The notes under the pieces: generated by a model
The model's input: only the letters and a program-made list of their open reading frames with translations
Database searches by the model: none
What the model was told of the DNA's origin: nothing
Program-made: the position numbers and the translations under genes
NCBI RefSeq assembly: GCF_000023205.1
Contig: NC_012803.1
Span: 2,469,098-2,501,097 of the forward strand
Direction of reading: 5' to 3'
DNA length: 32,000 bases
Origin: Micrococcus luteus NCTC 2665
Lineage (GTDB): Bacteria; Actinomycetota; Actinomycetes; Actinomycetales; Micrococcaceae
Shown here: positions 2,035 through 28,596 of the stretch, piece by piece
How the letters are laid out: every line of letters begins with the position of its first letter
How positions within the stretch are numbered: position 1 is the stretch's first letter

Positions 2035-2052
2035 GACCGCTTTCCTGGGAGG

Positions 2053-2592: not shown

Positions 2593-3704
2593 GCCCTCGC
2601 CCCGCCCGCGCCCCCTTCGCGTTCGGCGGGGTCGAGGTGGCGGCCGGCCGCCGCCACGAGCTGTCCCTGCCGATCTCCCAGCTCGTCACCGGCGCGGACG
2701 TCACCCTGCCCGTGCACGTGCTGCACGGCCGCGAGGACGGGCCCACCGTGTGGGTCTCCGCCGCGATCCACGGGGACGAGGTGGCCGGCGTCGAGATCAT
2801 CCGCCGCGTCCTGGAACGCCTGCAGCCCACGCAGCTGCGCGGCACCCTGCTGGCCGTGCCCATCGTCAACGTGCTCGGCGTGATGGCCGGGGACCGCTAC
2901 CTGCCGGACCGCCGCGACCTGAACCGCTCCTTCCCCGGCTCCGCCCGGGGCTCGCTGGCCTCGCGCATCGCACACCTGATGATGACCGAGGTGATCGGCC
3001 GCTGCACCGTGGGCATCGACCTGCACACCGGCGCGGACCGCCGCTCCAACCTGCCGCAGATCCGGTGCGACCTGGAGGACCCCCAGACCCGCGCGCTCGC
3101 CGAGGCGTTCGGTGCCCCCGTGCTCTTCCACGCCCGCCTGCGGGACGGCTCCCTGCGCGCCGCGGCCCGCGAGACCGGCGCCCGCGTGCTGCTCTACGAG
3201 GCCGGCGAGGCCTGGCGGTTCGACGAGTACGCGATCGCCCCCGGCGTGGACGGGGTCCTGCGCGTGCTCGCCGCCCTGGACATGGTGGACCCCGCGGACG
3301 TCGGGCTCACCGAGCCCGGGCCGGACGCCGTCGTCGACGCCCCCGGGCCGCTGCCCGGCGAGGTCCCCGAGGAGCGGACCACGGACGTGCCCGAGGCGAC
3401 CGACGCCACCGGCGAGGACACCGCCGCCGTGCACCCCGACGTCGTCGACGGCGAGCAGGACGCCCCGTACCTGGTGTGGCAGTCCACGTGGGTGCGCGCC
3501 CGCGCGGACGGCCTCGTGCACCTGCACGTCTCCCTCGGCGAACGCGTGAGCGCCGGGGACCGGATCGGCGCGCTCTACAACTCGTTCGGCCGCCGCCTCG
3601 CGCACGTGAAGGCCGAGCTGACCGGCGTGGTCATCGGCCGCACCGAGGCACCCCTGGTGCACCGCGGCGACGCCCTCGTGCATATCGGAGGATGGGACGC
3701 ATGA
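2589..3704 (+). CDS. succinylglutamate desuccinylase/aspartoacylase (AstE/AspA, M14-like zinc carboxypeptidase) family protein
   Basis: GTG at 2589 overlaps the upstream stop (GTGA), suggesting translational coupling. Motifs AIHGDEVAG (HxxE zinc site), DLNRSFPG and GIDLHTG are typical of the family. There is an acidic low-complexity insertion (PGEVPEERTTDVPEATDATGEDTAAVHPDVVDGEQD) before the C-terminal beta domain. Confidence 0.75.
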   Translation: MSPRPARAPFAFGGVEVAAGRRHELSLPISQLVTGADVTLPVHVLHGREDGPTVWVSAAIHGDEVAGVEIIRRVLERLQPTQLRGTLLAVPIVNVLGVMAGDRYLPDRRDLNRSFPGSARGSLASRIAHLMMTEVIGRCTVGIDLHTGADRRSNLPQIRCDLEDPQTRALAEAFGAPVLFHARLRDGSLRAAARETGARVLLYEAGEAWRFDEYAIAPGVDGVLRVLAALDMVDPADVGLTEPGPDAVVDAPGPLPGEVPEERTTDVPEATDATGEDTAAVHPDVVDGEQDAPYLVWQSTWVRARADGLVHLHVSLGERVSAGDRIGALYNSFGRRLAHVKAELTGVVIGRTEAPLVHRGDALVHIGGWDA

Positions 3705-3744
3705 GCGGCCGCGGGGCGCCGTCCGCGCGCCGGAGCCGCCCCGC

Positions 3745-4977
3745 TCAGGCCGGGGACGGGCGCCGGGCGATGGCCCGGCCGCCGTGCACGAGCCGGTAGT
3801 AGAGCAGCAGCGCCACCCCGACCCCGCCGGAGAGCAGGTACATCACCGGGATCCCGACGGCGGCCGCCACCGCGCCGAGCACCATGGGGCCGAGGCCGGT
3901 GCCGAGGTCCAGGAGCAGGAAGAACGTGCCCGTGGCGACGCCGATCTCGGTGGGTCGGACCACCTTGATCGCGATGGTCTGGAACACGCTCACCACCGGC
4001 CCGTAGGTCAGCCCCAGCAGGGCGCCGGCCACGAGCATGCCCGCCGGCTCCCGCCACAGCGCCAGCACCGCGTAGGAGACAGCCATCCCCGCGAGGATCG
4101 GGTAGACGACGGCATTGTCCCCGTGCCGGTCGTGCAGCACGCCCAGGACGGTGCGGCCCACGATGGTGCCCACGGCGAAGAGCAGGAAGAACAGGCTCGG
4201 CACCGTCGCCGGGTAGCCCTGCTGCTGCGCGAACGTGGCCATGAACGCGAGGATGCCGCCGTACATGAACCCGGAGGCCAGGGCCACGCCCGCCGCCGGC
4301 GCCACCTCCGCGGAGAACACGTCCGCCCGGTGCAGCCGGAACCGGCCCGTCAGCGGCGGCTCGGGCACGCGCAGGAACAGGGCGATCAGCAGGGCCATGC
4401 CCGTGAAGCCGATGCACGCCCGGAACAGGGCGTCGTAGCCGAGGGCCGTGCTCAGCTGCAGCGCCACCATCGGCCCGACGGCGCCCGCGATCGTCATGGA
4501 CGTCGAGAACCAGCCGGTGCCCTCGGAGCGGCGCACCGGCGGGACGATCCGCTGCACGGCCGTGGCCAGCACGGTGCCGGCCGCACCGAAGCACATGCCG
4601 TTGAGCAGCCGCACCGCGGTCAACGTGGCCAGGGAGTCCGCCCAGAGGTACGCCGCCGTCGTGAGGACGTAGCAGGCCAAGGCGACGAGCAGGACCCGCC
4701 GCCGCCCCCACGCGAAGGTGGCGGGCGTCGTCGTCATGCGGGTGAGGACCGCGCCCAGCACGAACGCCCCCACCACGACGCCGGCCTCCGCGTCCGACGC
4801 GCCGAAGGACGTGACGGCGTAGAGCGCCATCGCGGTCATGAGCGTGTAGAAGATCATCGCCACGAACAGGTAGGTCGCGCTGACGAGGATGAACGGGCGC
4901 GTCCACAGCGGCGGGCGCGGGGCCGCCGTCGAGCCGGCGGGGTCGGAGGGCGGTGGGGCGGAGGGCATGGCCTCCAT
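3745..4977 (-). CDS. MFS transporter
   Basis: Track ORF 3745..5535 trimmed to the ATG at 4977 (MEAMPSAPPP..; ATG at 4968 also possible). About 12 hydrophobic helices with MFS-type loops (LLNGMCFGAAG, PPVRRSEGTGWF). The upstream part of the long ORF is lower-GC and not transporter-like. Confidence 0.8.
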   Translation of the reverse strand: MEAMPSAPPPSDPAGSTAAPRPPLWTRPFILVSATYLFVAMIFYTLMTAMALYAVTSFGASDAEAGVVVGAFVLGAVLTRMTTTPATFAWGRRRVLLVALACYVLTTAAYLWADSLATLTAVRLLNGMCFGAAGTVLATAVQRIVPPVRRSEGTGWFSTSMTIAGAVGPMVALQLSTALGYDALFRACIGFTGMALLIALFLRVPEPPLTGRFRLHRADVFSAEVAPAAGVALASGFMYGGILAFMATFAQQQGYPATVPSLFFLLFAVGTIVGRTVLGVLHDRHGDNAVVYPILAGMAVSYAVLALWREPAGMLVAGALLGLTYGPVVSVFQTIAIKVVRPTEIGVATGTFFLLLDLGTGLGPMVLGAVAAAVGIPVMYLLSGGVGVALLLYYRLVHGGRAIARRPSPA

Positions 4978-5103: not shown

Positions 5104-5979
5104 GTGCGAGTCTACTACTTCGACGACTCCGGCGACCGCAGTGGGGATCCCACGAAGCCCTACTTCGCGCTCGGAGGGTTCGGCATCGAGGCTGCCCGGG
5201 TCCCGGAGCTGGGCAGCAAGATCCGCGCCGTGGCGGAGCGTTACGGCATGCCGCTGGGGCATCCCGTCGAGTTGAAGTTCAATCAGGTCGGGCGAAGCAA
5301 GGACAACAAGCCGCGCAAGCCGCATTGGATGATCCGCGCTGGGCTGACGGACCCGAATGAACGTCGCGCGTTCGTGTACTCGGCACTGCGTGAGGCAGCT
5401 CAAGTGCCCTCCGTCGAATTCCTGTGCGTTGTCGTAGACCAGAGGCAATTGCGCGAGGAGGCTCACCCACTCAAGGAGGCCCTCACCCCCCTCCTCGAGC
5501 GCATTCAAATGAACGCAAAGAAGCACGCGACGCATGCGTTGGTCCTCATGGACGAGGAACAGGCCGATGACAAGGCATTACGGGAGGTGATGCGGAATGG
5601 GTCCGAGTTCCTGAAATATGACCGGATCCTGGACACCATCGCCTTCATCCCATCCGAAGAGAGCATCGGAATTCAGGTCGCTGACTTGGCGGCGGGCGCG
5701 ATCTCCCGCTACTTCAACTCAAACGACCCCGGGTATGTCCGGACGTTCCTGCGCAGCACGGCCTGCTCTCCGTCCGGAGATCCCAATGGATATGGGGTCA
5801 AGGTTTATCCCTTCGGGCGTTTCGCCGGGCCCGCCCGGCGATCTGCCCCTTGGGGCAGCGTTGACCGCGAGATCCATCAGATCGAGTTTGCTCGGTATCC
5901 CGGAGCGACATTGGGGTGGCGAAATGACGGCGCGCCAACGTTCGTCTGGCGACACGACTGGGACAGCGGTCTCGACTGA
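5104..5979 (+). CDS. DUF3800 domain-containing protein
   Basis: GTG start at 5104 preceded by GAGGAGG (5092-5098). N-terminal VYYFDDSGD and C-terminal IGIQVADLAAGAI match the two signature motifs I remember for DUF3800 (D-x-S-G and Q-x-A-D). G+C is visibly lower (about 58% in line 5401-5460) than in neighbouring genes. Confidence 0.7.
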   Translation: MRVYYFDDSGDRSGDPTKPYFALGGFGIEAARVPELGSKIRAVAERYGMPLGHPVELKFNQVGRSKDNKPRKPHWMIRAGLTDPNERRAFVYSALREAAQVPSVEFLCVVVDQRQLREEAHPLKEALTPLLERIQMNAKKHATHALVLMDEEQADDKALREVMRNGSEFLKYDRILDTIAFIPSEESIGIQVADLAAGAISRYFNSNDPGYVRTFLRSTACSPSGDPNGYGVKVYPFGRFAGPARRSAPWGSVDREIHQIEFARYPGATLGWRNDGAPTFVWRHDWDSGLD

Positions 5980-6104
5980 ATCTGCGTGAAAAAGAAACCG
6001 GGGGCTCCCTATTGAGAGCCACGGGGCGTTGAGAACCCCTCCCGGTCGTCAGTTCAGTGTATAGGACACCGAACAGTTGGCACCACCCTATCGCGCCCTA
6101 CACA

Positions 6105-6148
6105 CGATGATGCCCCGCCGTTCGAGTGGAACGGGCGGGGCATCATCG
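6105..6148. terminator. bidirectional intrinsic-terminator-like hairpin between the DUF3800 gene (+) and rplI (-)
   Basis: Perfect 15-bp stem: CGATGATGCCCCGCC (6105-6119) pairs with GGCGGGGCATCATCG (6134-6148), 14-nt loop. It lies 40 nt downstream of the rplI stop. Confidence 0.6.
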
Positions 6149-6187
6149 GGCGGATGACGCGTACTCGACGCGTTCAGAAGCGGATGA

Positions 6188-6649
6188 TCACTTCTTGGCC
6201 TTGGCGGCCACGACCTGCAGCTGGACGGTCGCGATGACGTCCTCGTGCAGGCGGACCTGGGCCTCGTGGTTGCCCACGGACTTGATGTGGGCCGGCAGGG
6301 TGATCGAGCGCTTGTCCACGGAGCCGAGGCCGGCGGCCTCGATCGCCTCGGCGACGTCGGCGGTCTGGACGGCGCCGAACAGGCGGCCCTCCGCACCGGC
6401 GGTGCGCTCGAGCTGCACGGGAGCGGACTGGAGCTGCGCGGCCTGGGCCTGCGCGTCCTCCAGGTTCGCCACGGCGCGGGCCGCGCGGGCCTTCTGCAGG
6501 GACTCGACCTGCTTCTCCCCGCCCTTGGTCCACACGGTGGCGAAACCGCGCGGGAGCAGGTAGTTGCGGGCGTACCCGTTCTTGACCTCGACCACGTCAC
6601 CGGAGGTGCCGAGACCGGCCACTTCCTGGGTCAGGATGAGCTTTGCCAT
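6188..6649 (-). CDS. rplI: 50S ribosomal protein L9
   Basis: [37 protein letters not shown]... is a canonical L9 N-terminal domain. Last gene of the rpsF operon. Confidence 0.97.
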
Positions 6650-6917: not shown

Positions 6918-7147
6918 CGTGGTGCTCCTTCAGAGTTCTCTGGAGCCCGCAGAACGGTTCTGCGGGATGGGATCACGCGGCGTCCCATGCGGGGCACGGG
7001 GCCGTGTGCGGTGCGGCCCGGCGGTGCCGGGTCGCGGGTGGGATGGGCCGCCGGGGCGGCCCTCCGGGCGACGTGCGCCCGGACGGAGAGGTCCGTGGTG
7101 TTCCGTGTCCGTCGCGGCCGTGGGGGCCGCGCCCGGTCAGTGCAGGA

Positions 7148-7750
7148 TCAGAACGGGGGCTCGTTGGAGGACGGGGTGTCCCATCCGCCGCCACCGCCGC
7201 CGCCGGACCAGGGGTCCTGCGGTGCGGCCTGGCCGCCGCCCTGCTGCTGGCCGCCCCAGCCGCCGCCCTGCTGGGCGCCGCCGAAGCCGCCGTCGTTGTT
7301 CCCCCCGGCGCCGCCGCCGGCCGGGGAGCCGCCGAAGCCGCCCCCCTGCTGGCCGCCGCCGAAGCCACCGCCGCCGCCACCGCCGCGCTGGGCGCGGGTG
7401 ACCTTGGCCGTGGCGAACCGCAGCGCCGGGCCGACCTCGTCCACGTCCAGCTCCCAGCTGGTGCGACGGTTGCCGTCCCGGTCGTCGTAGGAGCGCGCCC
7501 TGAGGCGGCCCTGCACGATCACGCGCATGCCCTTGGTCAGCGACTCCGCCACGTTCTCCGCGGCCTCGCGCCAGACCGAGCAGCGCAGGAACAGCGCTTC
7601 GCCGTCCTTCCACTCGTTGGTCTGACGGTCGAACGTGCGGGGCGTGGACGCGACGGTGAAGTTCGCGACGGCCGCGCCGTTCGGGGTGAAGCGCAGCTCC
7701 GGGTCGGCGGTGAGGTTGCCGACCACGGTGATGACGGTCTCGCCTGCCAT
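7148..7750 (-). CDS. ssb: single-stranded DNA-binding protein
   Basis: [38 protein letters not shown]... OB fold, a Gly/Gln-rich linker, and an acidic tip ending ...NEPPF. The ATG at 7750 has AGGAG 5 nt upstream; the track's GTG at 7756 is less likely. Confidence 0.95.
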
Positions 7751-8493: not shown

Positions 8494-9981
8494 TCACACC
8501 CCGCGGAAGAACTCCCGCACGGCCGCCGTCAGGTGCTCCACGTCCCGCACACCGCACATCTCGCGCGCCGAGTGCATGGACAGCAGGCCCAGGCCCACGT
8601 CCACGGTCCGGATGCCCAGGCGGGTCGCCGAGATCGGGCCGATGGTGGAGCCGCAGGGGACGTCGTTGTTCGAGACGAACTCCTGGAACGGCACCCCCGC
8701 CACGCCGCACCAGCGGGCGAACGCGGCCTCTCCCCCGGCATCGGTGGCGTAGCGCTGGTTGGCGTTGATCTTCAGCAGCGGGCCGTGGTTCACGCGCGGG
8801 TGGTTCACGGGATCGTGCCGCTCGGCGTAGTTCGGGTGCACCAGGTGGCCGGCGTCCGCGGACAGCAGCCAGGACCCCGCGATCGCCCGCGCCCGGCCCT
8901 GCCCGGCCACGCCGAGCGCCTCGAGCACGCGCCCCATGACCTCCTCGAGCAGCGGCCCGGCCGCCCCGGACCGCGACGCCGACCCCAGCTCCTCGTGGTC
9001 GAACGCGGCGAGCAGCGGGATCACCGGGGCGCCGGACGCCTCACCGGCCACCCCGCCCGCGACGGTCCCCTCGTACGCGATCGCCCCCTCGGCGCCGCCG
9101 TGCTCGCGCGCCAGCTCCTCGAGCGCCACGAGGCCCGCGTGCACCGAGCTCAGGTTGTCCAGCCGACCCGACGCGAAGAACTCGCCCGCCAGCCCGAAGA
9201 GTCCCGGCGCCTGGGCGTCGGCCACCACGACGTCGTGCCCACGCACCGCGGCCGGGTCCACACCGGCGGTAGCCGCGAGCGCGGTCAGCACGTCACCGGG
9301 CACGCGGGCGGCCAGACCGTCGGCCTCCGCCTCGCCGGCGTCCTCGCCGCGCGGGGCGAGCGCCCCCACGACGGGGTTCGTGTGCCGCTGCCGCTTCAGC
9401 CTCAGCCCCTCGTTGACCTCGCGGTCCAGATGGATGGCCAGCTGCGGGATACGCCCCACGGGCCCGGTCGCGGCGAGCACCTGCGTGCCGTCGTCGAGGG
9501 CGAGACGCCCGGCGAAGCGCAGCTCGCGGTCCAGCCACGAGTTCAGCAGCGGGCCGCCGTACACCTCGACGCCGGCCTGCACCCAGCCGTCGGCCGTCAC
9601 GGTGGCCGGGTTCGGCTTGAGCTTGAACCCCGGCGAGTCCGTGTGCGCGCCGAGCGCGCGGAACACCGGCACGACGCCGGCGTTCGGCCCCGCCTCGTCC
9701 GGCCCGGCCGCGCGCGCCTCAGCGCCCTCGTCCCGGCCCAGCGCGCCGGCACCCGTCGGCACGATCCAGGCCACCGCCGCGCCGTCGCGCACCACGACAT
9801 AGCCACCCGGGGCCGACGGGAAGTCGACCGTCTCGTCGAGGCGGGTGAAGCCGACGGCCTCCAGGCGGCGTGCGACCTCCTCCGCGGCGTGGTAACTGGA
9901 GGGTGAGGCGGTCACGAACTCGGCCAGGTCCCGCAGGTGGGCGGGCAGCTCGGCGACGGTGTCACGGGTCACGGGGGTCAT
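8494..9981 (-). CDS. M18 family aminopeptidase (aspartyl aminopeptidase-like)
   Basis: Track ORF trimmed to the ATG at 9981 (MTPVTRDTV...). Motifs include SPSSYHAAEE, GAHTDSPGFKLKPNP, FDHEELGS, DAGHLVHPNY and LSMHSAREM. Confidence 0.85.
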   Translation of the reverse strand: MTPVTRDTVAELPAHLRDLAEFVTASPSSYHAAEEVARRLEAVGFTRLDETVDFPSAPGGYVVVRDGAAVAWIVPTGAGALGRDEGAEARAAGPDEAGPNAGVVPVFRALGAHTDSPGFKLKPNPATVTADGWVQAGVEVYGGPLLNSWLDRELRFAGRLALDDGTQVLAATGPVGRIPQLAIHLDREVNEGLRLKRQRHTNPVVGALAPRGEDAGEAEADGLAARVPGDVLTALAATAGVDPAAVRGHDVVVADAQAPGLFGLAGEFFASGRLDNLSSVHAGLVALEELAREHGGAEGAIAYEGTVAGGVAGEASGAPVIPLLAAFDHEELGSASRSGAAGPLLEEVMGRVLEALGVAGQGRARAIAGSWLLSADAGHLVHPNYAERHDPVNHPRVNHGPLLKINANQRYATDAGGEAAFARWCGVAGVPFQEFVSNNDVPCGSTIGPISATRLGIRTVDVGLGLLSMHSAREMCGVRDVEHLTAAVREFFRGV

Positions 9982-10079
9982 GCCCCGACCGTACCGCGCC
10001 CCACCACCCCCTCCGGCTACCCTGGCCCGGAAGCGGCCCCGCCGCATCGCCCGCCCCGTCAGCGCAGGAGGAGCCCGCC

Positions 10080-10421
10080 GTGGACATCATGATCGCCGTC
10101 GCCGTGGGGGTCTTCCTCCTGGTGGCGTGGACCGTGGGCGGCTGGGCCATCGTGCGGATGGGCTTCACCCGGGACGGGGACGCGGCCCGCACCCCCGCCC
10201 ACGACGACGGCGCCGCGCGTCCGGTGCACCCCGGCGCGGCCGCGGACCCGGCCACCGACCCCCACGTGATGTGGCGCGAGCAGATGAAGGCGGCCACGGC
10301 CGCCTCCGGGGCGCAGTGCGTCTGTCCGCCGCCGCCCCGCGAGGACGGCGCCGCCGAGACGGGGACGACCGCGCCGCCGTCGTCCCCGGACTGCCCGATC
10401 CACCGCTGGGACTACGCCTGA
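10080..10421 (+). CDS. hypothetical small membrane-anchored protein (one N-terminal TM helix, Pro/Ala-rich tail with 3 Cys and a His)
   Basis: GTG at 10080 with AGGAGG at 10066-10071. Third-position G/C is very high throughout. Has a TM helix (IMIAVAVGVFLLVAWTVGGWAIV). No family recognised. Its 3-prime end overlaps the convergent GT87 gene by 10 nt. Confidence 0.45.
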   Translation: MDIMIAVAVGVFLLVAWTVGGWAIVRMGFTRDGDAARTPAHDDGAARPVHPGAAADPATDPHVMWREQMKAATAASGAQCVCPPPPREDGAAETGTTAPPSSPDCPIHRWDYA

Positions 10422-11944
10422 ACCGCGGCCGGCCGGCCTGAGCGCCCCCGGGCCGGGCCGGAGTCCGCGGCGTACGCGCCGGCGAGCGGGTCGGTGTCCG
10501 GGTGGCCGCCGTGGTCGCGCTTCACGAGGTCCTCGGCCGGGTGCAGCATCTCCCACACGACGCGCCCGCACAGCCACAGCACCGCGAGCATGTGCGCGAG
10601 GATCGCGGCCACGTAGACGGAGTCGTCCATGGAGTGCTGCGGCGGGGTCTCGGCCACCCCCTTGGCCAAATACATCCACACGGCGAAGAAGTGCAGCGCC
10701 TCCACCGTCTGCCACACCCAGAAGTCCCGCCACCGCGGCAGGGCGAGCGCCAGGAGCGGGATCAGCCAGACCACGAACTGCGGTGAGTACACCTTGTTGG
10801 TGAGCACGAACGCCGCCACCACCAGGAACGTCAGCTGGGCCAGCCGCGGGGTGTGCCGCACCCGCACGCCGAGCACGAAGATCCCCAGGCAGCACACCGC
10901 GAAGGTCCCGTAGGCCAGCAGGGTCAGGGAGTCCTCCGGCACGAACGCCCACCCGGCCTGCGCGGCGGTCACGTCCCACGCGTGCCACACGCTGGACAGG
11001 CCCGGCCCGCGCTCGCCGGAGAAGGTGAAGAACACGGACCACGCCTGGAAGTTCACGACCATGAGCGGCACGTTGACCGCCGCCCACGCCGCCACCGTGC
11101 CCCCGGCCGCGAGCAGGAACGGCCGCCACCGCCGCGAGCGCACCGCCAGGATCAGCAGCGGCCCCAGGATCAGCAGCGGATACAGCTTCATGGCCGCGCC
11201 GAGGCCGAACAGCACCCCCGCCGTCAGGGACCGGCCGCGCGACCACGCGTACATGCCGCACGCCAGCAGGGCCACGGCCCACAGGTCCCAGTTGATGGTG
11301 CCGGCCAGCACGATCCCCGGGGCCACGGCCACCATGAGCCCGTCCGTCCACCGGCGCCCCGCCATCCGGACGGTCAGCACCGCGACGACGGCCCACAGCA
11401 CCACCACGAACCCGAAGTTCACGAGCCAGAACACCACCGTGCCCTGCTCCGGCGAGAACGGCAGCGCCTGCGTGATCCAGGCCGCCACCGAGCCCACGAC
11501 GGACATCAGCACGGGGTACTCGAACGTGGAGCCCGCCCGGAACGGCGCCCACGGGTCCGCCGCGAACCCGCGCCCGCCGTAGAGCGCGGCCCAGTCCGAA
11601 TAGCAGCCCGCGTAGTAGACGTCCGGGGCGCCCCAGCCGTGCAGCAGGCACGGCGACTTCTGCAGCACGGTCACGACGGCGGCCAGAGCCACCAGCAGCC
11701 CCGTCAGCGCCACGGGCCCGGCCCAGGAGCCGGTCCCCCGTCCGGGGCCGTTCGCCGCGAGGCCGCCGGCGAGCTGGAAGCGTCCGCCGCGCTCGCCGGG
11801 GGCGGGCAGGGTCCCGGACGGTGCGCTGTCAGCGGAACGCCCGGCGGGGACACCCGGGGCGGTCACGGCGTCGCTCGGGGCGCCGTCCGCGGCGTGAGTG
11901 GGCGGCTCGCTGGGGGTCGCGGCGTGCGCGGGGGCCGGTCTCAT
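10412..11944 (-). CDS. GT87/DUF2029-like polytopic membrane glycosyltransferase (Rv0051-like)
   Basis: Multi-pass membrane protein. After a Pro/Ala-rich N-terminus it has the GT-C-like first loop (DVYYAGCYSDWAALY...FEYPVLMSVV). Its position next to ino1 and the rpsF operon mirrors mycobacterial Rv0046c-Rv0056 synteny. The function is an inference. Confidence 0.6.
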   Translation of the reverse strand: MRPAPAHAATPSEPPTHAADGAPSDAVTAPGVPAGRSADSAPSGTLPAPGERGGRFQLAGGLAANGPGRGTGSWAGPVALTGLLVALAAVVTVLQKSPCLLHGWGAPDVYYAGCYSDWAALYGGRGFAADPWAPFRAGSTFEYPVLMSVVGSVAAWITQALPFSPEQGTVVFWLVNFGFVVVLWAVVAVLTVRMAGRRWTDGLMVAVAPGIVLAGTINWDLWAVALLACGMYAWSRGRSLTAGVLFGLGAAMKLYPLLILGPLLILAVRSRRWRPFLLAAGGTVAAWAAVNVPLMVVNFQAWSVFFTFSGERGPGLSSVWHAWDVTAAQAGWAFVPEDSLTLLAYGTFAVCCLGIFVLGVRVRHTPRLAQLTFLVVAAFVLTNKVYSPQFVVWLIPLLALALPRWRDFWVWQTVEALHFFAVWMYLAKGVAETPPQHSMDDSVYVAAILAHMLAVLWLCGRVVWEMLHPAEDLVKRDHGGHPDTDPLAGAYAADSGPARGRSGRPAAVQA

Positions 11945-12112
11945 GCCCCCATCCTAGGAAGCCGCCCGGACACCGGACGGGCGGGGCCGCCGTCGTCGGT
12001 CGTAGACTGGCGGGGTTGATCCCCGGGTGAGCGCCCCGCCGAACGGTGTGGGCCCCCCTGCGCGCGCCGCGTGCCCGCACCCGTTCCGGACAGTCGAGGA
12101 GAGAACCAGACC

Positions 12113-13198
12113 GTGGCCACCAATCCCATCCGCGTCGCCATCGCCGGCGTGGGCAACTGCGCAACATCCCTCATCCAGGGTGTGGAGTACTACCGCGAGG
12201 CGAAGGCCACGGACACGGTCCCAGGCCTGATGCACGTGCAGTTCGGCGACTACCACGTGTCGGACCTCGAGTTCGTGGCCGCGTTCGACGTGGACGCGAA
12301 GAAGGTCGGCCTGGACCTGTCCGAGGCCATCACCGCCTCCGAGAACAACACCATCAAGATCGCGGACGTGCCCCACGCGGACGTCACCGTCCAGCGCGGC
12401 CCCACCCTGGACGGCCTCGGCAAGTACTACGCCGAGACCATCGAGGAGTCGGAGGCCGAGCCCGTGGACGTGGCCCAGGCCCTCCGCGACGCGGAGGTGG
12501 ACGTGCTGGTCTGCTACCTGCCCGTCGGCTCGCAGCGGGCCACAGAGCACTACGCCCAGGCCGCGATCGACGCCGGCGTCGCGTTCGTGAACGCCCTGCC
12601 CGTGTTCATCGCCGGCACCCCGGAGTGGGCCGAGAAGTTCACCGCCGCGGGTGTGCCGATCGTGGGCGACGACATCAAGTCCCAGATCGGCGCCACCATC
12701 ACCCACCGCGTGATGGCCAAGCTGTTCGAGGACCGCGGCGTCACCCTGGACCGCACCTACCAGCTCAACGTGGGCGGCAACATGGACTTCAAGAACATGC
12801 TCGAGCGTGAGCGCCTGGAGTCCAAGAAGATCTCCAAGACGCAGGCCGTCACCTCCAACACCTCCGCGCAGCTGGGCGAGAAGGATGTGCACATCGGCCC
12901 GTCCGACTACGTGGCCTGGCTCGACGACCGCAAGTGGGCGTTCGTGCGCCTCGAGGGCCGCAACTTCGGCGACGCCCCCGTCTCGCTCGAGTACAAGCTC
13001 GAGGTGTGGGACTCCCCCAACTCGGCCGGCGTGATCATCGACGCCGTGCGCGCCGCGAAGATCGCCCTGGACCGCGGCATCGGCGGGCCGATCCTCTCGG
13101 CCTCGTCCTACTTCATGAAGTCCCCGCCCGTGCAGCACAACGACGACGCGGCGCACGAGCTCGTGGAGGCCTTCATCCGCGGCGACATCGAGCGCTAA
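12113..13198 (+). CDS. ino1: myo-inositol-1-phosphate synthase
   Basis: [24 protein letters not shown]...[60 protein letters not shown] is a canonical actinobacterial Ino1. I prefer the GTG at 12113 (GAGGAGA about 10 nt upstream) over the track's GTG at 12071. Confidence 0.92.
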
Positions 13199-20023: not shown

Positions 20024-22069
20024 GTGCCCCAGCCCATCGCCGTCGGCGCCGTCCTGGGCGGCCGCTATCGCATCACCCAGCACGTGGTGACGTCCGCGGA
20101 CCAGGACATGGTGTTCCTGGGCACGGACCAGGTGCTCAACCGCCGCGTCACCGTGCTCGTGGCCTCACGTGAGAACGCCACGCAGGTGGCCTCGTCCGCG
20201 CGGGAGCTGGCCACGGGCGAGCGCACCGACGACGTGCAGGTGCTCGACCTGGGGCTGTCCGAGGGCCGCACGTACCTGATCGCCGGCGGGGACCCCGACC
20301 CGGACGTCCTGCTGGGTCTGGCGTACCCGCAGGAGCTGTACGTGGAGCCGTTCCAGACGGACAGCCTCGGCTCCGAGCTGTTCGGCGAGTCGCGGACCGG
20401 AGACCCCCACGCCTACGACGACGACGAGGCGTACTACACCGACCTCGACCGCCGGCTCCGCGCGGACGAGGACGAGGCCCAGCGTCGTCCCGGGTTCCTG
20501 AACCGCCTCTCCGAGCGCCTCGCCGAGCGGGTCCGTCCCTCCGACGGCACCGCGGCGAAGGCGGCCGCCGGGGCGTCGGCCCTGGCCGCGGCGGACGCCG
20601 CCACCCGGAAGCAGCAGGAGGAGCGCGAGCGGGCGGAGCGGGAGGCCGCCGAGCGCGCAGAACGCGAGCGCAAGGAGGCCGAGGAGAAGGCCCGCGCCGA
20701 ACGGGAGGCCGCCGAGCGGGTCGAGCGGGAGCGCAAGGAAGCCGCCGAACGCGCAGAACGCGAACGTCGGGAGGCGGAGGAGCGTGCCGAGGAGGAGCGC
20801 CGCGCCGAGGCCGAGCGCGCGCGTCGCCAGGCGGAGCAGGAGGCGGAGGAGCGGGCCGCGCGCGAGCGGGAGGCCGAGCAGGCCCGGCTGGCCGCGGAGC
20901 GGGAGGAGGCCGAGCGCCGCGAGCTCGAGCGCCGGGCCGAGGCCCGCCGTCGTGCCGAGGAGGAGCGGGCCCGGGAGGCCGCGGAGCGCGAGGCTGAGAA
21001 GCGCGCAGCCCAGGAACGCGAGGCCGCGGAGCGCGAGGCTGAGAAGCGCGAGGCCCAGGCGGGCACCGCCGCGCTTCCGGCCGTGGCGGCCGAGAAGACC
21101 GACGCACCGGAGCCGGCCGCCCCGGACACCGAGGCTATCCCCGTGCGTCGCCAGCGTCCCGTCCCGCGCCGCGTGCTGGAGACCGAGTCCGCGCCGGCGG
21201 TCGACGAGAAGTCCCGCGGCACGGCGGCGCCGGTGGCCGCCGGTGCCGCGGCCATGCGCGCTGCGGATGCCGCGACCGCGGGGTCGACGGCCGCCGCCGC
21301 GGCTCCGGACGCATCGACCGCCGCGTCCGCCCCGCCGGCCGGGGGCGGCGAGGGCGCCACGGTGGCCGATCCAGGCGATGGGGACAGCCGGAAGAGCGGC
21401 GGCCCGCTGGCCCTGCTCCTCGTGCTCGGCCTGCTCGCCGCACTCGTCGTGGGCGGGGTGCTGCTGGCCCAGAACCTGCGCGGCGGGCCGGCCCCGCAGG
21501 CCGCGGCCGCGTCGTCCGAGTCTGCGTCGTCCGGGTCCGCATCGGACACCCCGTCGCCGTCGGAGAGCACCAGCCCCTCCCCCACCCCGACCAGCGAGAG
21601 CGCCGCGGCCGCCCCGCAGCCCGTCCAGGCCCTGCGCTCGGTGCCGGACCTGCCGGAGCACGAGGCCGAGCACGACGCGGACCTGCCCAACCTCATCGAC
21701 GGCGACCCCACCACCGTGTGGCGCACCTTCGCCTACGCACGGCCGAACTTCGGCGGCTATGTGGAGAGCATGAACCTCGTGGTCCAGCTTGAGGACCGCA
21801 CCGAGGTGAACGAGGTGACCCTGCAGAGCACGGGGGCCACCGGTGGCGCCTGGTTCGCCTACATCGCCGACTCCCCCGAGGGCGCGAACGCCCAGGAGAT
21901 CGGCAACGGCACCTTCGACCAGGACACCGTCTCCATCCCCGTGCCGTTCGAGGGCACCGAGGCCGAGGCCGAGTACGTGATCGTCAGCCTCACCTCGCTG
22001 CCCCAGCTGGAGGGCACGACGTCGGACCTCCCGTTCGGCCTGCGCCTCGGCGAGATCGCCGTCCGCTGA
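20024..22069 (+). CDS. MurJ-associated pseudokinase-like single-pass membrane protein with an extracellular discoidin/CBM-like domain
   Basis: Only the 3-prime part of track ORF 18107..22069 is real. GTG at 20024 with AGGAG at 20011-20015. The N-terminus has a kinase N-lobe-like sequence (LGGRYRITQHV..FLGTDQVLNRRVTVLV) without an obvious catalytic loop. Next come about 150 aa of E/R/K/A, a TM helix (LALLLVLGLLAALVVGGVLLA), an S/P/T linker, and a C-terminal LIDGDPTTVWRT... domain. This corresponds to the C-terminal half of mycobacterial MviN (Rv3910). Confidence 0.75.
   Translation: MPQPIAVGAVLGGRYRITQHVVTSADQDMVFLGTDQVLNRRVTVLVASRENATQVASSARELATGERTDDVQVLDLGLSEGRTYLIAGGDPDPDVLLGLAYPQELYVEPFQTDSLGSELFGESRTGDPHAYDDDEAYYTDLDRRLRADEDEAQRRPGFLNRLSERLAERVRPSDGTAAKAAAGASALAAADAATRKQQEERERAEREAAERAERERKEAEEKARAEREAAERVERERKEAAERAERERREAEERAEEERRAEAERARRQAEQEAEERAAREREAEQARLAAEREEAERRELERRAEARRRAEEERAREAAEREAEKRAAQEREAAEREAEKREAQAGTAALPAVAAEKTDAPEPAAPDTEAIPVRRQRPVPRRVLETESAPAVDEKSRGTAAPVAAGAAAMRAADAATAGSTAAAAAPDASTAASAPPAGGGEGATVADPGDGDSRKSGGPLALLLVLGLLAALVVGGVLLAQNLRGGPAPQAAAASSESASSGSASDTPSPSESTSPSPTPTSESAAAAPQPVQALRSVPDLPEHEAEHDADLPNLIDGDPTTVWRTFAYARPNFGGYVESMNLVVQLEDRTEVNEVTLQSTGATGGAWFAYIADSPEGANAQEIGNGTFDQDTVSIPVPFEGTEAEAEYVIVSLTSLPQLEGTTSDLPFGLRLGEIAVR
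20606..21057 (+). repeat. in-frame imperfect tandem repeats encoding an E/R/K/A-only segment
   Basis: 31-bp perfect repeat GAGGCCGCGGAGCGCGAGGCTGAGAAGCGCG at 20975-21005 and 21020-21050 (45-bp period). CGGGAGGCCGCCGAGCG occurs at 20639-20655 and 20702-20718 (63-bp period). Protein: RKQQEERERAEREAAERAERERKEAEEKARAEREAAERVERERKEAAERAERERREAEERAEEERR... Confidence 0.9.
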
Positions 22070-23756: not shown

Positions 23757-25130
23757 TCAGGACTTCTTGCCCTTCCCCTTGCCGTCCTGACCGCCCTGGA
23801 TGAGGTCCATGATGCGGTTCAGGTCCTCTACGGTGGTGAAGTCGATGGCGATGCGGCCCTTGCGCGCGCCGAGGGTGATCTTCACGGCGGTGTCCAGGCG
23901 GCTGGTGAGCGCGGTGGCGTAGTGGTCCAGGCGCTCGTGGCGGGCGTCGTCCGTGCTGCGCCGCGGCGTGCGGCCCGGCCGGAGCCCGCCCTGCAGCTGC
24001 GCGACCGCCTCCTCCGTGGACCGGACGGACAAGCCCTCCGACTGGATCCGCTGCGCCAGACGCTCCATGTCCGACGGGTCCGTGAGACCGAGCAGCGCAC
24101 GCGCATGGCCGGCCGAGAGCGTGCCGGCGGCCACGCGGCGCTGCACGAGGGGCGGCAGCTTGAGCAGCCGCAGCGTGTTGGAGATCTGCGGACGAGAGCG
24201 GCCGATGCGCTGGGACAGCTCCTCCTGCGTGCAGGCGAAGTCCTCCATGAGCTGCTGGTAGGCGGCGGCCTCTTCGAGCGGGTTCAGCTGGGAGCGGTGC
24301 AGGTTCTCCAGCAGAGCATCCCGCAGGAGGTCCTGGTCCGGGGTCTGGCGGACGATCGCCGGGATGGTGTCCAGGCCGGCCTTCTGGGTGGCGCGCCACC
24401 GGCGCTCGCCCATGATCAGCTCATAGGGGGTGGGGCCGTCCACCTCGCGCACGACGATCGGCTGCAGGATGCCGACCTCGCGGATCGAGGTGACCAGTTC
24501 CGCCATGTGGTCCTCGTCGAACACCTCACGCGGCTGCCGCGGGTTGGGGTGGATGTCCCCCACCGGGATCTCCCGCAGGACCGCGATGTCCGCGGACACG
24601 GTCCCCTCGGTCGCGGCGGACTCAACGCTCGAGTCCCCCGGTTCGTTCCTCGACGACGTCGCGGAGGTGGCACGCTTGCTGGGCGCCTTCACCGTCGGCA
24701 TGGCCGGACGCCCCTTGGTCGGCCGCGCCGCGGGTGCATCCTCGGAGTCTGCGGAGAAGAACACGTCGACGGGACGCTGCGCGGGTCGCGAGGCACGCTT
24801 CGACGAGGTGGGCCCTGCCTTCGTGGCGGACGTGGCGTTCCTGCCAGTCGCAGCCGTTGATTTCCCGGCCTGTGTCGTTCGGCCCGCGGTCTTCCGCTGC
24901 GAGGCCGACGGGGCGGGCTCGTTGGACTCCCCTGGCGTCTCGGTCGTCGCGGTGCTCCGCGTCGATGTCGTGGTGGCCTCCGCTGCCGCGGCAGCCTTCG
25001 GGCCGCTCTTCACCGGCACCGCAGAGTCCTTCGGGGAGGTGGCCTCGGCGTTCTCTTCCGGGGCTTCTACAGTGCTCTGGATCAGGGCGCCGAGGCCTCG
25101 CCCCAGGCCTCCTCGACGGCTCGTCTTCAA
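23757..25130 (-). CDS. parB: chromosome partitioning protein ParB (CTP-dependent parS-binding clamp) with a long low-complexity insertion
   Basis: TTG start at 25130 with AGGAGG 5 nt upstream. The N-terminal RRGGLGRGLGALI peptide is followed by about 165 aa rich in S/T/A/P/K. Then come PNPRQPREVFDEDHMAELVTSIREVGILQPIVV, the GERRWRA box, an HTH (TQEELSQRIGRSRPQISNTLRLLKLP), and a C-terminal dimerisation domain with a Lys-rich tail (GKGKGKKS). Confidence 0.93.
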   Translation of the reverse strand: MKTSRRGGLGRGLGALIQSTVEAPEENAEATSPKDSAVPVKSGPKAAAAAEATTTSTRSTATTETPGESNEPAPSASQRKTAGRTTQAGKSTAATGRNATSATKAGPTSSKRASRPAQRPVDVFFSADSEDAPAARPTKGRPAMPTVKAPSKRATSATSSRNEPGDSSVESAATEGTVSADIAVLREIPVGDIHPNPRQPREVFDEDHMAELVTSIREVGILQPIVVREVDGPTPYELIMGERRWRATQKAGLDTIPAIVRQTPDQDLLRDALLENLHRSQLNPLEEAAAYQQLMEDFACTQEELSQRIGRSRPQISNTLRLLKLPPLVQRRVAAGTLSAGHARALLGLTDPSDMERLAQRIQSEGLSVRSTEEAVAQLQGGLRPGRTPRRSTDDARHERLDHYATALTSRLDTAVKITLGARKGRIAIDFTTVEDLNRIMDLIQGGQDGKGKGKKS

Positions 25131-25372
25131 CGGGTCCTCCTGCAGTGAGTGGGTCTGGGATCAGTGTAGGTGAGCGGCCTGGTCTCGATGGTCCCGGGCG
25201 GCGGGAAGACACTTCTCAAGGTGCTCTGGCCCTGACCGCCGGGGGGCGCGCGAGGGCCTGACACGTGCAAGGGGCGCGGCGAGGTTCGGGCCCCGGTTCT
25301 GGGGTGAGACGTCCGTATTGGGCCCGGACGGCAGGAGGTGGGCGCGCGGACAGCACCTGCCGCGAGCGTGAG

Positions 25373-25388
25373 TGTTTCACGTGGAACA
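25373..25388. promoter_or_regulatory. parS site 1 (TGTTTCACGTGGAACA, 1 mismatch in the 14-bp core)
   Basis: Match to the chromosomal parS consensus tGTTTCACGTGAAACa. Confidence 0.7.
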
Positions 25389-25463
25389 CTCCGAGTGGGG
25401 GCGCTTCGGAAGGATGCCGCTGCAATCCCCAAGACCTCCTCGTGTTCCCTCTCGAGGTTCACT

Positions 25464-25479
25464 CGTTTCACATGAAACG
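25464..25479. promoter_or_regulatory. parS site 2 (CGTTTCACATGAAACG, 1 mismatch in the core)
   Basis: Match to the parS consensus. The central CG is replaced by CA. Confidence 0.65.
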
Positions 25480-25777
25480 CGAGCCCGCGTCGACGAGCGG
25501 ACGGTATCAGAATCACGGCTGCTCGGTTTGTTTTCCATGTGCTCCCCGGCCGATCAGCTCCCGTGCGGACGATACTCAGATTGCTGGTTACCCGCATGAT
25601 GATGTGCCTCATCTTGTGTGAAATGCCGGACCAGCAACGAAGCACTCGTCTCACTCCCCCGCGGTGCGAGGTGAACACTCGAATCAGCGAACGGATGAGC
25701 TCGGCTACTCGTCGCTTCGCCGTCAGTGCTTCCTCGCACCCGCGCAGCTGACGAATTGAACGCTGCTTGGCCATCCG

Positions 25778-25793
25778 CGTTTCACGTGAAACA
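25778..25793. promoter_or_regulatory. parS site 3 (CGTTTCACGTGAAACA, perfect 14-bp core)
   Basis: Perfect GTTTCACGTGAAAC palindrome. Confidence 0.88.
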
Positions 25794-25971
25794 CGGACGA
25801 ATCTGTCATCCAAGTACGACATGAGTTCGTGGTGGGCCACGTGCTCGCTCACCCGCGAGTCAGTGCCACCTTCCTGCTTCATTCTCGGTCAGCTCGCTCC
25901 CGGCACGGAACGTGTGCTCCCTGGATCGCCCGAGGTGGCGACCTCGCGGCACGGCCCTTTGTCCCGGAGCT

Positions 25972-25987
25972 CGTTTCACGTGAAACG
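25972..25987. promoter_or_regulatory. parS site 4 (CGTTTCACGTGAAACG, perfect 16-bp palindrome)
   Basis: Perfect GTTTCACGTGAAAC palindrome. Confidence 0.88.
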
Positions 25988-26155
25988 TATCGTTCGAAGA
26001 TTCCACCGCGCGCTCATGCCGTGGAAGCCCGCCCCCAAGCGGGTCGCATCCCGAGGCTGGCGTGCGCAGGGGCCACTATATCTTGAGAGGTTCAGTCTCG
26101 CCGCGTCGCTGATAAAACTGGCTCGGATCCAGTGAGCGCCGACCACCAGTCGTTC

Positions 26156-26171
26156 GGTTTCACGTGAAACG
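26156..26171. promoter_or_regulatory. parS site 5 (GGTTTCACGTGAAACG, perfect 14-bp core)
   Basis: Perfect GTTTCACGTGAAAC palindrome. Confidence 0.88.
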
Positions 26172-26367
26172 TGCTGGGAGGGAACGCCGGGTCGCGGGTT
26201 CGGTGCCGGGGCAGCGTGCACCCACTTCCGCCATCGACGGTATTGCTCGATGTGGTCGCCGATGTCACGGGCGGCAGTACAGTGACGCGGCTGGCCCTCC
26301 ACCCGACCTACCGAATCCATTCGTCCTGTCAGCTGAGGCCGCCCATCAAAGTCTCAGGACCGCCTCG

Positions 26368-26376
26368 TGTGGAAAC
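26368..26376 (-). promoter_or_regulatory. weak DnaA-box-like 9-mer (GTTTCCACA on the minus strand)
   Basis: TGTGGAAAC on the plus strand. Two mismatches to the actinobacterial TTGTCCACA and one mismatch to the relaxed TTWTNCACA. Confidence 0.25.
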
Positions 26377-26446
26377 TGGGTCTTCATGACGTCCATCCGC
26401 GGACAGCTGCGGTCAGGAACCGACGCTAGGGGAGCGCGGACCACCG

Positions 26447-26462
26447 TGTTTCACGTGAAACC
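26447..26462. promoter_or_regulatory. parS site 6 (TGTTTCACGTGAAACC, perfect 14-bp core)
   Basis: Perfect GTTTCACGTGAAAC palindrome. Confidence 0.88.
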
Positions 26463-26691
26463 CCCGGTGACCGGCCGATTACTCGACGCCCTGGTTCCCA
26501 CGTCGCTGCAAGCGACAGAACCACACGGCCCGCCCCATCCCGCACGGAGCCGCCGCGGGCTCCCCGGGGGGCCTCTACCGCAGTCACCATTGACACGCCG
26601 TCCCCGTGCCCAGCCGTCAGACGCCACAGGAGACTGAGCAGGACTCATCAACACCGCAGAGACATCTACCGCCGCACACCTTAGACGTCCC

Positions 26692-26713
26692 TTGTCCACA
26701 GATGTTGTCCACA
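26692..26713 (+). promoter_or_regulatory. two perfect tandem DnaA boxes (TTGTCCACA at 26692-26700 and 26705-26713, same orientation)
   Basis: cccTTGTCCACAgatgTTGTCCACAtatcaacatcaacg. Both 9-mers equal the actinobacterial DnaA-box consensus. They are followed by the most AT-rich patch of the region; line 26701-26760 is about 52% G+C by hand count. Confidence 0.75.
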
Positions 26714-27468
26714 TATCAACATCAACGTTCGCTGGTGACCACGTCAAGACGCCTGTTGGCCAGTTCAACCACTTGCCTCTGTATACATTGGGGGCACACG
26801 ACCGCTCTTCCTCACTGGAGGCTCTCTTTCTCCGCACACAGGAATGCACAGCAGAACTGTCCTTCAGGCGCCGCCAATCGGCCCCTCCAACTCAGACGAA
26901 TCACAGCAGACCCCCTCGCCGCTGACGTCCCCTCTCGCACACGCTGACTGACAGACCGGCCGCGCACCCCCGCGACGGCACTCTGACTCGTGCTCCGCTC
27001 TGGCCCCCGATTCCCTGCACGTCACCGACGGCGAGGAGGTCTGACATGGGGGAGGGGGCACCCAGCCACGGCACCCGGCCTGCTCGACGGCTGCATTCTC
27101 GGGGCTGCCACGAGCCCGCCTGGGGCGGCAGGGACGGGCCATGCCCTGCACGTCCGCAGCCGCCGGTTAGGACGTTCCCTACGAACCGCGCAGCTCCCGA
27201 GGCGCACCTCAACGCACGGTGCACCGCCGGCCGGCCATCACAGCCGCGGTCCCGCCCCAGGGCGAAACCGTCCTCCCCGTGACTTCGTGCGTCGCCGCCC
27301 CCGGCTGCCCCCACGCCTGGCGACAGATGCGCCCCGCCCACAACGGAGCGGCAGAGGGCTCGGCCCAGGGGAGGAGAGGGGAGCGGGACAGACGGGAGCG
27401 GTCCACTACGGGCACCCCTCCCCATCGTCCCATCGCGGCGGCACGACGCTCGCACCCTCGGAGGGGGT

Positions 27469-27484
27469 CGTTTCACGTGAAACA
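27469..27484. promoter_or_regulatory. parS site 7 (CGTTTCACGTGAAACA, perfect 14-bp core)
   Basis: Perfect GTTTCACGTGAAAC palindrome, 165 bp downstream of the parA stop. Confidence 0.88.
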
Positions 27485-27552
27485 CGGTCGTCCGCTATGC
27501 CCAGCGATTCCGCTTGTCTTCCTGCCGCTTATCTCCCGGGCCGCACTCACTC

Positions 27553-27599
27553 ACGACGAAGCCCGCCGGGGGATCGCTCCCTCCGGCGGGCTTCGTCGT
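27553..27599 (-). terminator. terminator-like hairpin downstream of parA
   Basis: 17-bp stem: ACGACGAAGCCCGCCGG (27553-27569) pairs with CCGGCGGGCTTCGTCGT (27583-27599). It lies 50 nt after the parA stop (27649). No U-tract, as is common in high-GC actinobacteria. Confidence 0.6.
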
Positions 27600-27648
27600 C
27601 GTCAGCAGCGCCACCCGGCGACCACCGCAGCAGCGGGTCGCCTGCGCG

Positions 27649-28596
27649 TCAGCCCTTCAGGGCCGTCGGCGCACCGCGGCCGGCGATCTCCGCGGCCGCC
27701 TCCCGGTACGCCACGGCGCCGGCCGAGGCCGGGTCGTAGGTCAGCACCGTCTGCTGATAGCTGGGGGCCTCGGAGATGCGGACGTTGCGGGGGATCGCGG
27801 TGTTCAGCAGCTGCTCCGGGAAGTGCGTCCGGACCTCCTCCGCCACCTGCACGGCGAGGTTGGTCCGCGCGTCGAACATCGTCAGCAGGATGGTGCTCAC
27901 CTTGAGGCGCGGGTTCAGGTGTTTCTGGATCATCTGCACGTTCTTGAGCAGCTGCGAGAGGCCCTCGAGGGCGTAGTACTCGGCCTGGATCGGGATGAGC
28001 ACCTCCTCAGCCGCCACGAACGCGTTGACCGTCAGCAGGCCCAGGGACGGCGGGCAGTCGATGAACACGTAGTCCAGCCGCTCCTGCCCGACCTCCTCGC
28101 GCCAGGCGGTGTACGCCTCGAGCGCCCGCGACAGTCGCTGTTCGCGGGCCACCAGCGAGACCAGCTCGATCTCGGCACCGGCCAGGTCGATCGTCGCGGG
28201 CACCACCTGCAGGCCGTCCACGTCCGGGGCGTCCTGCACGACGTCCTGGATCTCCATCTCGCCCAGGAGCACGTCGTACACGGAGGCCACGTCTCCGGTG
28301 TGGGGGATGTTCAACGCGGTGGATGCATTGCCCTGCGGGTCGATGTCCACCACCATCACCCGCATGCCCGCGCGGGCGAGGGCCGCGGCCAGGTTGACCG
28401 TCGTCGTCGTCTTGCCGACGCCGCCCTTCTGGTTGGACGTCGTGAATACGCGGGTGCGGTCGGGGCGCGTCAGACGGCGACGCTGGAGCCGCGCGGGCTC
28501 CTCGGCGTCGGCGCCGCCCTTCTCGGCGGTCCGGCCGGTCCACTTCTGGCGCAGGGCCCTCCAGGCCCCACCCCGGCTCTCCTGCTCCTGCGCCAT
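27649..28596 (-). CDS. parA: chromosome partitioning ATPase ParA/Soj
   Basis: Deviant Walker A SNQKGGVGKTTTTVNLA, plus VMVVDIDPQGNAS and YVFIDCPPSLGLLT. ATG at 28596 with AGGAGG upstream. About 50-aa basic N-terminal extension, typical of actinobacterial ParA. Confidence 0.95.
   Translation of the reverse strand: MAQEQESRGGAWRALRQKWTGRTAEKGGADAEEPARLQRRRLTRPDRTRVFTTSNQKGGVGKTTTTVNLAAALARAGMRVMVVDIDPQGNASTALNIPHTGDVASVYDVLLGEMEIQDVVQDAPDVDGLQVVPATIDLAGAEIELVSLVAREQRLSRALEAYTAWREEVGQERLDYVFIDCPPSLGLLTVNAFVAAEEVLIPIQAEYYALEGLSQLLKNVQMIQKHLNPRLKVSTILLTMFDARTNLAVQVAEEVRTHFPEQLLNTAIPRNVRISEAPSYQQTVLTYDPASAGAVAYREAAAEIAGRGAPTALKG

Follow-up and report, generated by a model that had tools for sequence, protein, structure and literature searches.

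Why are the chromosome-partitioning genes parA and parB of Micrococcus luteus NCTC 2665 separated by about 2.5 kb, and what does the DNA between them do? ParABS systems work through ParB, which loads at parS sites, spreads and forms a partition complex that is moved by ParA and recruits SMC. We analyzed a 32-kb stretch of the chromosome that contains both genes (hereafter the window; all coordinates given without a locus label are window positions) and compared it with the corresponding loci of related species. The results showed that the spacer between parA and parB, at 25131-27648, carries no recognizable gene and holds all seven parS sites of the window. Our best explanation, to which we give a probability of about 0.8, is that a gene-free centromere island, built around parS sites, lies between parA and parB and separates them.

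Both partner proteins are intact and carry their diagnostic motifs. According to its open reading frame (ORF) translation and Pfam, parA (27649-28596, minus strand) encodes a Soj-type Walker ATPase of 315 aa. Its deviant Walker A motif reads KGGVGKT within NQKGGVGKTT and agrees with the KGGxGK[ST] pattern of type Ia ParABS systems. An identical public ParA protein is assigned to the Pfam families ParA, CbiA and AAA_31, and the unchanged protein is present on many public contigs. parB (23757-25130, minus strand) encodes 457 aa with Pfam ParB_N and HTH_ParB domains. Its translation consists of an N-terminal RRGGLGRGLGALI peptide, a low-complexity linker of ~190 aa, ParB_N with the sequence GERRWRA, and the helix-turn-helix domain; PF02195, PF17762, the GERRxR CTP-binding motif and the ParA-interacting peptide, all expected of a type Ia ParB, are thus present. 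A first-pass annotation of this DNA had placed the parB start at a TTG codon at 25130 with a strong ribosome-binding site (RBS) and a canonical N-terminus. This was borne out by the N-terminal sequence MKTSRRGGLGRGLGALI and by the RBS AGGAGGA at 25135-25141 (minus strand), which was invariant in a six-species Micrococcus alignment. The same annotation had reported the separation of the two genes, and the gap was confirmed at 2518 bp. By its proteins and sites the M. luteus system is an ordinary chromosomal ParABS; the feature that it lacks is the parAB operon, in which the two genes overlap or lie up to ~200 bp apart.

The spacer showed none of the properties of coding DNA. A frame plot revealed no codon periodicity across 25160-27560, where the spread of GC content among codon positions was at most 0.21, compared with 0.35-0.69 in parA and the conserved parB core. 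The spacer was the sole low-periodicity segment longer than 500 bp within the window; shorter segments without codon periodicity (300-420 bp) were also seen at 5730-6150, 6960-7290 and 11790-12120. The 10 longest ORFs of the gap had no Pfam match at E ≤ 1, and tblastn of the gap ORFs with composition statistics gave no match in 80 loci of other species, which agrees with the earlier view that these ORFs are not proteins. A tblastx comparison of the gap with all loci returned hundreds of short, scattered and non-colinear matches of the kind produced by high-GC composition, and these were discarded as noise. Rfam returned nothing for the whole window at the gathering threshold; its E-value mode gave for the gap only a sub-threshold hairpin-type match to the Pseudomonas small RNA P37, located at the hairpin behind parA, and a chance microRNA match. 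No tRNA or transfer-messenger RNA was detected in the window, the gap had no blastn match in plasmid or phage collections, and no terminal repeats, inverted or direct, surround the spacer other than parS. These Pfam, tblastn, Rfam and plasmid and phage searches thus revealed no gene, insertion-sequence remnant or RNA family covering the spacer. Of three public assemblies, two have no gene called in the gap; the third has a 251-aa ORF there without a Pfam family, which spans two parS sites and overlaps the start of parB.

The base composition of the spacer differs in part from that of the window. The gap has 66.1% GC, compared with 72.2% for the window, and the drop is found only in 25350-26850 (62.0%), while the parA-proximal 800 bp have 72.2%. 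The lower GC claimed in the first-pass annotation therefore held for the lines it had sampled (56.7% and 51.7%) but not for every part of the spacer. Such a drop is a normal mark of non-coding DNA in a high-GC genome, and we do not read it as a sign of foreign origin.

The main content of the spacer is parS. A search of the window with GTTTCACGTGAAAC returned seven sites, five of them perfect and two carrying a single mismatch. The gap contains every one of them, compared with 0.00-0.01 expected by chance; a 16-mer search returned the identical seven. The sites match tGTTNCACGTGAAACa, and both this sequence and their proximity to oriC are those of canonical chromosomal type Ia ParABS systems. 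Consensus matches define an array of six sites at 25373-26462 (25373-25388, 25464-25479, 25778-25793, 25972-25987, 26156-26171 and 26447-26462), with spacings of 91, 314, 194, 184 and 291 bp. The seventh site, CGTTTCACGTGAAACA, stands alone at 27469-27484, 166 nt after the parA stop, and a parS 70-190 nt past the parA stop likewise occurs in M. antarcticus, M. lylae and the loci L003 and L007. Between the array and the solitary site lies a stretch of about 1 kb without parS (26463-27468), which measures 0.8-1.2 kb in other Micrococcus species. No strand is assigned to the island, the array, the solitary site or the parS-free stretch. Read from parA to parB, the layout is parA stop, hairpin, solitary parS, ~1 kb free of parS, six parS, RBS and TTG, with an overall density of 2.8 parS per kb. 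Similarity extending around some sites (for example GTTTCACGTGAAACACGG) was considered as a trace of site duplication and rejected as too short.

The island lies close to the replication origin. The locus belongs to the primary chromosome and stands next to rpmH-rnpA-yidC-rsmG. At the identical public locus L081, distances of ~3.7 kb and ~5.9 kb separate the parA start from dnaA and from the dnaA-dnaN region, respectively, and the dnaA and dnaN genes are 3.7-7 kb from parA, which places the island ~6-7 kb from oriC. DnaA-box clusters were found at the corresponding positions in the loci of related species.

A ParA scan with one genome per species yielded 80 loci, all but one from Micrococcaceae (the exception was a metagenome-assembled genome labelled Acidobacteria). 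For each locus we mapped the parA stop, the parB start (from the GLGRGL motif), the parB stop, parS and low-periodicity segments. The flanking genes of the window and of other Micrococcus species share 77-82% DNA identity. The alignment between Micrococcus species ends at the parA stop and restarts ~40 bp upstream of the parB start, and within the spacer only parS and a 30-nt DnaA-box block match. Since only these match between congeners, the spacer appears free to drift save for short elements.

The DnaA-box block (26692-26721, plus strand) consists of the tandem pair TTGTCCACA-N4-TTGTCCACA followed by TATCAACA. Its two perfect boxes start at 26692 and 26705, 13 bp apart, inside the parS-free kilobase. 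The block was conserved in all five Micrococcus species compared, where the alignment reads TGTTGATATGTGGACAAC..CTGTGGA(C/T)AA, and it is the sole conserved block inside the otherwise unalignable spacer besides parS; two consensus DnaA boxes are thus kept in position across these species (L001 9450-9480, L002 ~9420, L003 ~5702, L007 9967-9996 and L085 4923/5118). Most loci have pairs of the same type between rpmH and dnaA and between dnaA and dnaN. The ATG that opens the block was considered as the start of a small ORF and rejected, since conservation ends after the boxes and no periodicity is present. DnaA-box-like sites with one mismatch were also seen at 6312 and 6526. With seven parS and a conserved DnaA-box pair, the first-pass description of the spacer as rich in cis-elements, and as a centromere island uncoupling parA from parB, was supported.

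The split arrangement is not peculiar to this genome. It was scored in the window, four further Micrococcus, two Zhihengliuella, Rothia koreensis, Rothia sp. HC945 and Arthrobacter sp. UM1, with a gap of 989-3712 bp, 4-9 parS and no island after parB, except in Arthrobacter sp. UM1, which has 4 parS before parB and 3 after it. Two species were looked up separately: M. lylae has a gap of ~3.2 kb with 7 parS and the same internal layout including the DnaA boxes, and Citricoccus sp. SGAir0253 has a gap of 2498 bp with 8 parS and no gene called. The split is conserved in at least seven Micrococcus species. Of 76 related loci that were scored, 66 have the adjacent arrangement, with a gap of 35-380 bp; they belong to Arthrobacter, Glutamicibacter, Sinomonas, Tersicoccus and other taxa. 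Adjacency, which the first-pass annotation had taken as the norm, is thus the usual state, but the split recurs in several genera. A full-text literature search with incomplete coverage found no description of parS islands on Micrococcaceae chromosomes, so that an earlier notice is possible. The earlier impression that the arrangement is undescribed agrees with the papers and annotations found, but the split is Micrococcus-wide and extends to other genera.

Most adjacent-type loci carry a parS-rich stretch without periodicity directly after parB. This downstream island measures 2850 bp with 9 parS in A. crusticola and 3660 bp with 6 parS in Sinomonas atrocyanea, and the long ORFs of both islands had no Pfam match. 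Both islands end at trxA-trxB, genes that also follow parB in M. luteus. With the same flanking genes in the two arrangements, parB and the island have swapped places. These findings indicate that the island is family-wide, varying in sequence, and that the side of parB it occupies differs among species. A rough neighbour-joining tree of ParA and the ParB core, a two-protein gene tree and not a species tree, placed the split taxa at at least four separate positions, which suggests repeated switches of arrangement.

Single parS sites also occur outside the islands. In most adjacent-type species, one parS falls within parB itself, in the part that encodes the disordered linker (for example L019 9411, L022 9848, L055 9440 and L008 ~9107). 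All inspected examples share one reading frame across the site, which yields the peptide V-S-R-E-T, and 14 loci place the site exactly 72 nt upstream of the conserved core. M. luteus parB has no internal parS, and the corresponding peptide is TVSADIA. In adjacent-type species another parS usually precedes the inferred parA start by some tens of nucleotides (for example L059 7857, L029 7854 and L015 7896); the Micrococcus, Zhihengliuella and Tersicoccus loci have no site at this position. The M. luteus ParB linker (24545-25090, parB codons ~15-195) is rich in A, T, S and P, lies between the ParA-interacting peptide and ParB_N, and could not be aligned between Micrococcus species. Across the family ParB is 333 to 594 aa long, and public records give M. 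luteus parB products of 314, 382, 456 or 457 aa. No parB is listed for L083 (CP035298.1) at 8948-12960, although its DNA matches the window over 12 kb at 99.95% identity and with 2 gap openings; this may reflect a frameshift or a pseudogene call in that assembly.

Equivalent gene-free islands were present in 48-49 other loci that we analyzed. Class statistics were calculated for 49 islands, taken from loci L001-L080 and the window and limited to loci with a GC content of 60% or more, in which periodicity can be measured reliably. The median length was 2540 bp (range 989-3860), with a median of 6 parS (range 2-10) and 2.4 sites per kb. The median spacing between sites was 335 bp (interquartile range 232-474). 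Spacings below 150 bp made up 7.8% of those observed, compared with 29.5% under random placement within each island, and the mean coefficient of variation (CV) of the spacing was 0.42, compared with 0.74. A k-mer enrichment analysis of 62 islands revealed no second shared motif, only words containing stop codons, as expected for non-coding DNA. The sole motif common to all islands is parS.

These observations are consistent with the following mechanism. The spacer would be the chromosome's dedicated non-coding centromere, marked by seven canonical parS palindromes. ParB dimers, in which the GERRWRA motif is kept, would load at each parS as CTP-gated clamps and slide over the flanking DNA, giving one dense partition complex. 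Nucleoid-bound ParA-ATP would then move this complex, which probably also loads SMC. The DNA between the sites appears to have no sequence constraint of its own, yet it is retained; the sites are more evenly spaced than chance, which suggests that this DNA serves as room for loading and spreading. A gene-free zone may in addition spare genes from silencing by ParB and spare the clamps from being stripped off by transcription.

With the island between them, parA and parB probably no longer form one operon. The hairpin that had been reported after parA was found at 27553-27599 (minus strand), 50 nt after the parA stop. Its GC-rich arms (27553-27572 and 27580-27599) are 20 nt long, 95% complementary and separated by a 7-nt loop, and the 126 nt around it fold with -86.6 kcal/mol (z = -6.4); it is the likely parA terminator. 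Two terminator-like sites from a scan were not above shuffle expectation. A -10-like hexamer, TACACT (25163-25168, minus strand), lies 32 nt upstream of the parB start as a candidate promoter, and TA(C/G)A(C/A)T was aligned ~32 nt before the parB start in five of six Micrococcus upstream regions whose surroundings are not conserved. The putative terminator and the putative -10 element fit a split operon, and parB is probably read from its own promoter at TACACT. ParB is able to repress nearby promoters, and the candidate promoter is close enough to the array for ParB to reach it by spreading, which would make autoregulation possible. We regard a separate parB promoter with autoregulation as a tentative proposal, at somewhat under an even chance. 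The conserved tandem DnaA-box pair suggests that DnaA may also bind the centromere, and we hold this possibility about as cautiously.

The island can be compared with several known systems. Corynebacterium glutamicum carries 10 parS in 35 kb, nine of them intergenic, 73 kb from oriC, with parA and parB adjacent; ParB spreads over kilobases from parS with maximal enrichment within 2 kb of a single site, and parS redundancy improves robustness (PMC7083940). M. luteus has the same proteins, the same 16-bp palindrome and several redundant origin-near sites mostly outside coding sequence, but its seven parS are crowded into 2.5 kb of gene-free DNA between parA and parB, ~6-7 kb from oriC. Among described systems, the non-coding multi-parS loci of repABC replicons come closest; the M. 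luteus island is analogous to them but not a member of their class. The gene-free '3parS' locus of Paracoccus pAMI4 is required for plasmid stability (Czarnecki et al. 2022, PMC9040568), and chromosome 2 of Allorhizobium vitis has a long non-coding locus with 2 parS (PMC9040568). Such loci are 1.5-2.4 kb of intergenic DNA without gene remnants, AT-richer than their replicon and with identical parS; they were described as exceptions, on secondary replicons with RepA/RepB, with the parS consensus GTTNNNNGCNNNNAAC and 2-3 sites 12-90 kb from the par genes (PMC9040568). The M. luteus island likewise exceeds 1.5 kb of intergenic DNA with multiple parS and no gene remnants, and it is AT-richer than its surroundings (66.1% vs 72.2% GC), although this is expected anyway for non-coding DNA in high-GC genomes. 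Unlike the repABC loci, it lies on a primary chromosome and has canonical parS, and the Micrococcaceae islands hold 4-10 sites, abut parB and are conserved across a bacterial family.

The placement of the sites is shared with systems that have a centromere between the A and B partition genes. There, the centromere is a short stretch between genes of a single operon that contains one site or a few and has been proposed to act in regulation, whereas the island is an array of 1-3.7 kb with a hairpin after parA. The plasmid centromere arrays F sopC and P1 parS lie downstream of the partition operon and consist of tight tandem repeats with tens of bp per unit. They resemble the islands as non-coding arrays of B-protein sites flanking the A and B genes, and the order parA-parB-island of the Arthrobacter type mirrors sopA-sopB-sopC; they differ in that island sites lie ~335 bp apart in a unique, fast-evolving spacer. 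DnaA binds the centromere of Caulobacter crescentus, where binding and function have been demonstrated (Mera et al. 2014, reviewed in PMC6399470). M. luteus similarly has consensus DnaA boxes in a centromere region close to oriC, but its link to DnaA consists of sequence conservation within one genus.

Several points weigh against the view of the spacer as a centromere island. Every functional step in M. luteus, from ParB and DnaA occupancy to termination, promoter use and autoregulation, is one that we infer. C. glutamicum and other bacteria manage with parS scattered among ordinary genes, and bacteria in general therefore do not need a gene-free zone. None of 2000 simulations reached the observed share of short spacings or the observed CV, but this significance is overstated because related species were treated as independent. 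The parS census spans the 32-kb window, and further sites elsewhere in the genome are possible. The parA hairpin has no U-tract, a sigma-70 consensus promoter scan of the spacer found no site, and the -10-like hexamer is a weak motif that is missing in one of six species. A perfect DnaA box was present in only 8 of 62 islands family-wide, which indicates that DnaA binding is at best a lineage-specific addition.

The most probable of the alternatives, although we consider it unlikely, is that the gap really exists because of a non-coding RNA or small protein, so far unannotated, that is encoded in the spacer and particularly in its parS-free kilobase. In several Micrococcus species this kilobase agrees in length and position, and the conserved 30-nt block within it opens with ATG. 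However, conservation ends directly after the two DnaA boxes and codon periodicity is absent, and the sub-threshold hairpin-like match was all that Rfam returned. Outside the block the sequence is unalignable between congeners, which argues against a structured RNA or a conserved peptide. A little less likely still is an island that serves mainly as a DnaA-binding regulatory locus, either for titration in the manner of datA or a DnaA-box cluster or as a DnaA-controlled promoter, with parS as a secondary feature. The perfect tandem pair conserved in five Micrococcus species and the Caulobacter precedent would fit this idea, as would the density of perfect DnaA boxes, which is 10-fold higher in islands than in neighbouring genes. 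Two boxes nevertheless stand here against seven parS, few islands of the family have a perfect box, and all of them share parS and no other motif.

We consider it very improbable that the spacer is the remains of one or more decayed genes, or of a mobile element, once located between parA and parB, with parS incidental. Gene-like GC without periodicity in the parA-proximal 800 bp and the 251-aa hypothetical ORF called in one assembly could be taken as traces of decay. That ORF, however, crosses two parS sites and runs into parB, and neither Pfam families for the 10 ORFs, tblastn matches in the 80 related loci, plasmid or phage similarity nor terminal repeats apart from parS were found. Recent decay also does not predict islands of the same size and parS density recurring across the family in unalignable sequence. 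An assembly artefact or strain-specific insertion is refuted, since 12 kb of the window is 100% identical to LS483396.1, 100% to WBMF01000017.1 and 99.95% to CP035298.1, three independent assemblies of which two are complete chromosomes, and since the arrangement is kept in at least seven Micrococcus species and in other genera.

One neighbouring gene of the window was also recorded. A protein of 681 aa without a Pfam family is encoded between murJ and trxB at ~20024-22069 (plus strand; L081 14528-16573). In this protein a segment rich in S, A and P follows a long E/R/A repeat region of high charge (AEREAAERAERERKEAEE).

Reading the spacer as a centromere island has consequences for how parS is understood. 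These sites are usually viewed as isolated 16-bp points scattered among genes, whereas a whole family here reserves 1-4 kb of unique, fast-evolving, gene-free DNA for regularly spaced parS, in genomes as compact as 2.5 Mb. The islands provide a natural system for asking how much flanking DNA each ParB loading site needs, whether ParB spreading and transcription exclude each other, and how a partition complex is tuned by the number and spacing of its sites. The natural variants, in which the island follows parB, surrounds it or separates it from parA, are a ready-made test of how important co-transcription of parA and parB is, and the conserved DnaA-box pair offers a testable link between initiator and centromere outside Caulobacter. 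In practice, annotation pipelines at times call spurious ORFs within the islands and assign inconsistent parB starts (products of 314 to 457 aa).

Finally, we tentatively propose, as a possibility still on the doubtful side, that Micrococcaceae have a regional centromere, in which 1-4 kb is selected to be gene-free, only the evenly spaced parS (about one per 335 bp) are constrained, and the spacer DNA gives ParB clamps room to load and slide. parB would lie on either side of this region or inside it, with several switches during the history of the family. The Micrococcus island may in addition recruit DnaA by way of its conserved tandem box pair and place parB under separate, ParB-sensitive control, which would couple replication initiation, segregation and ParB dosage in a coccus.

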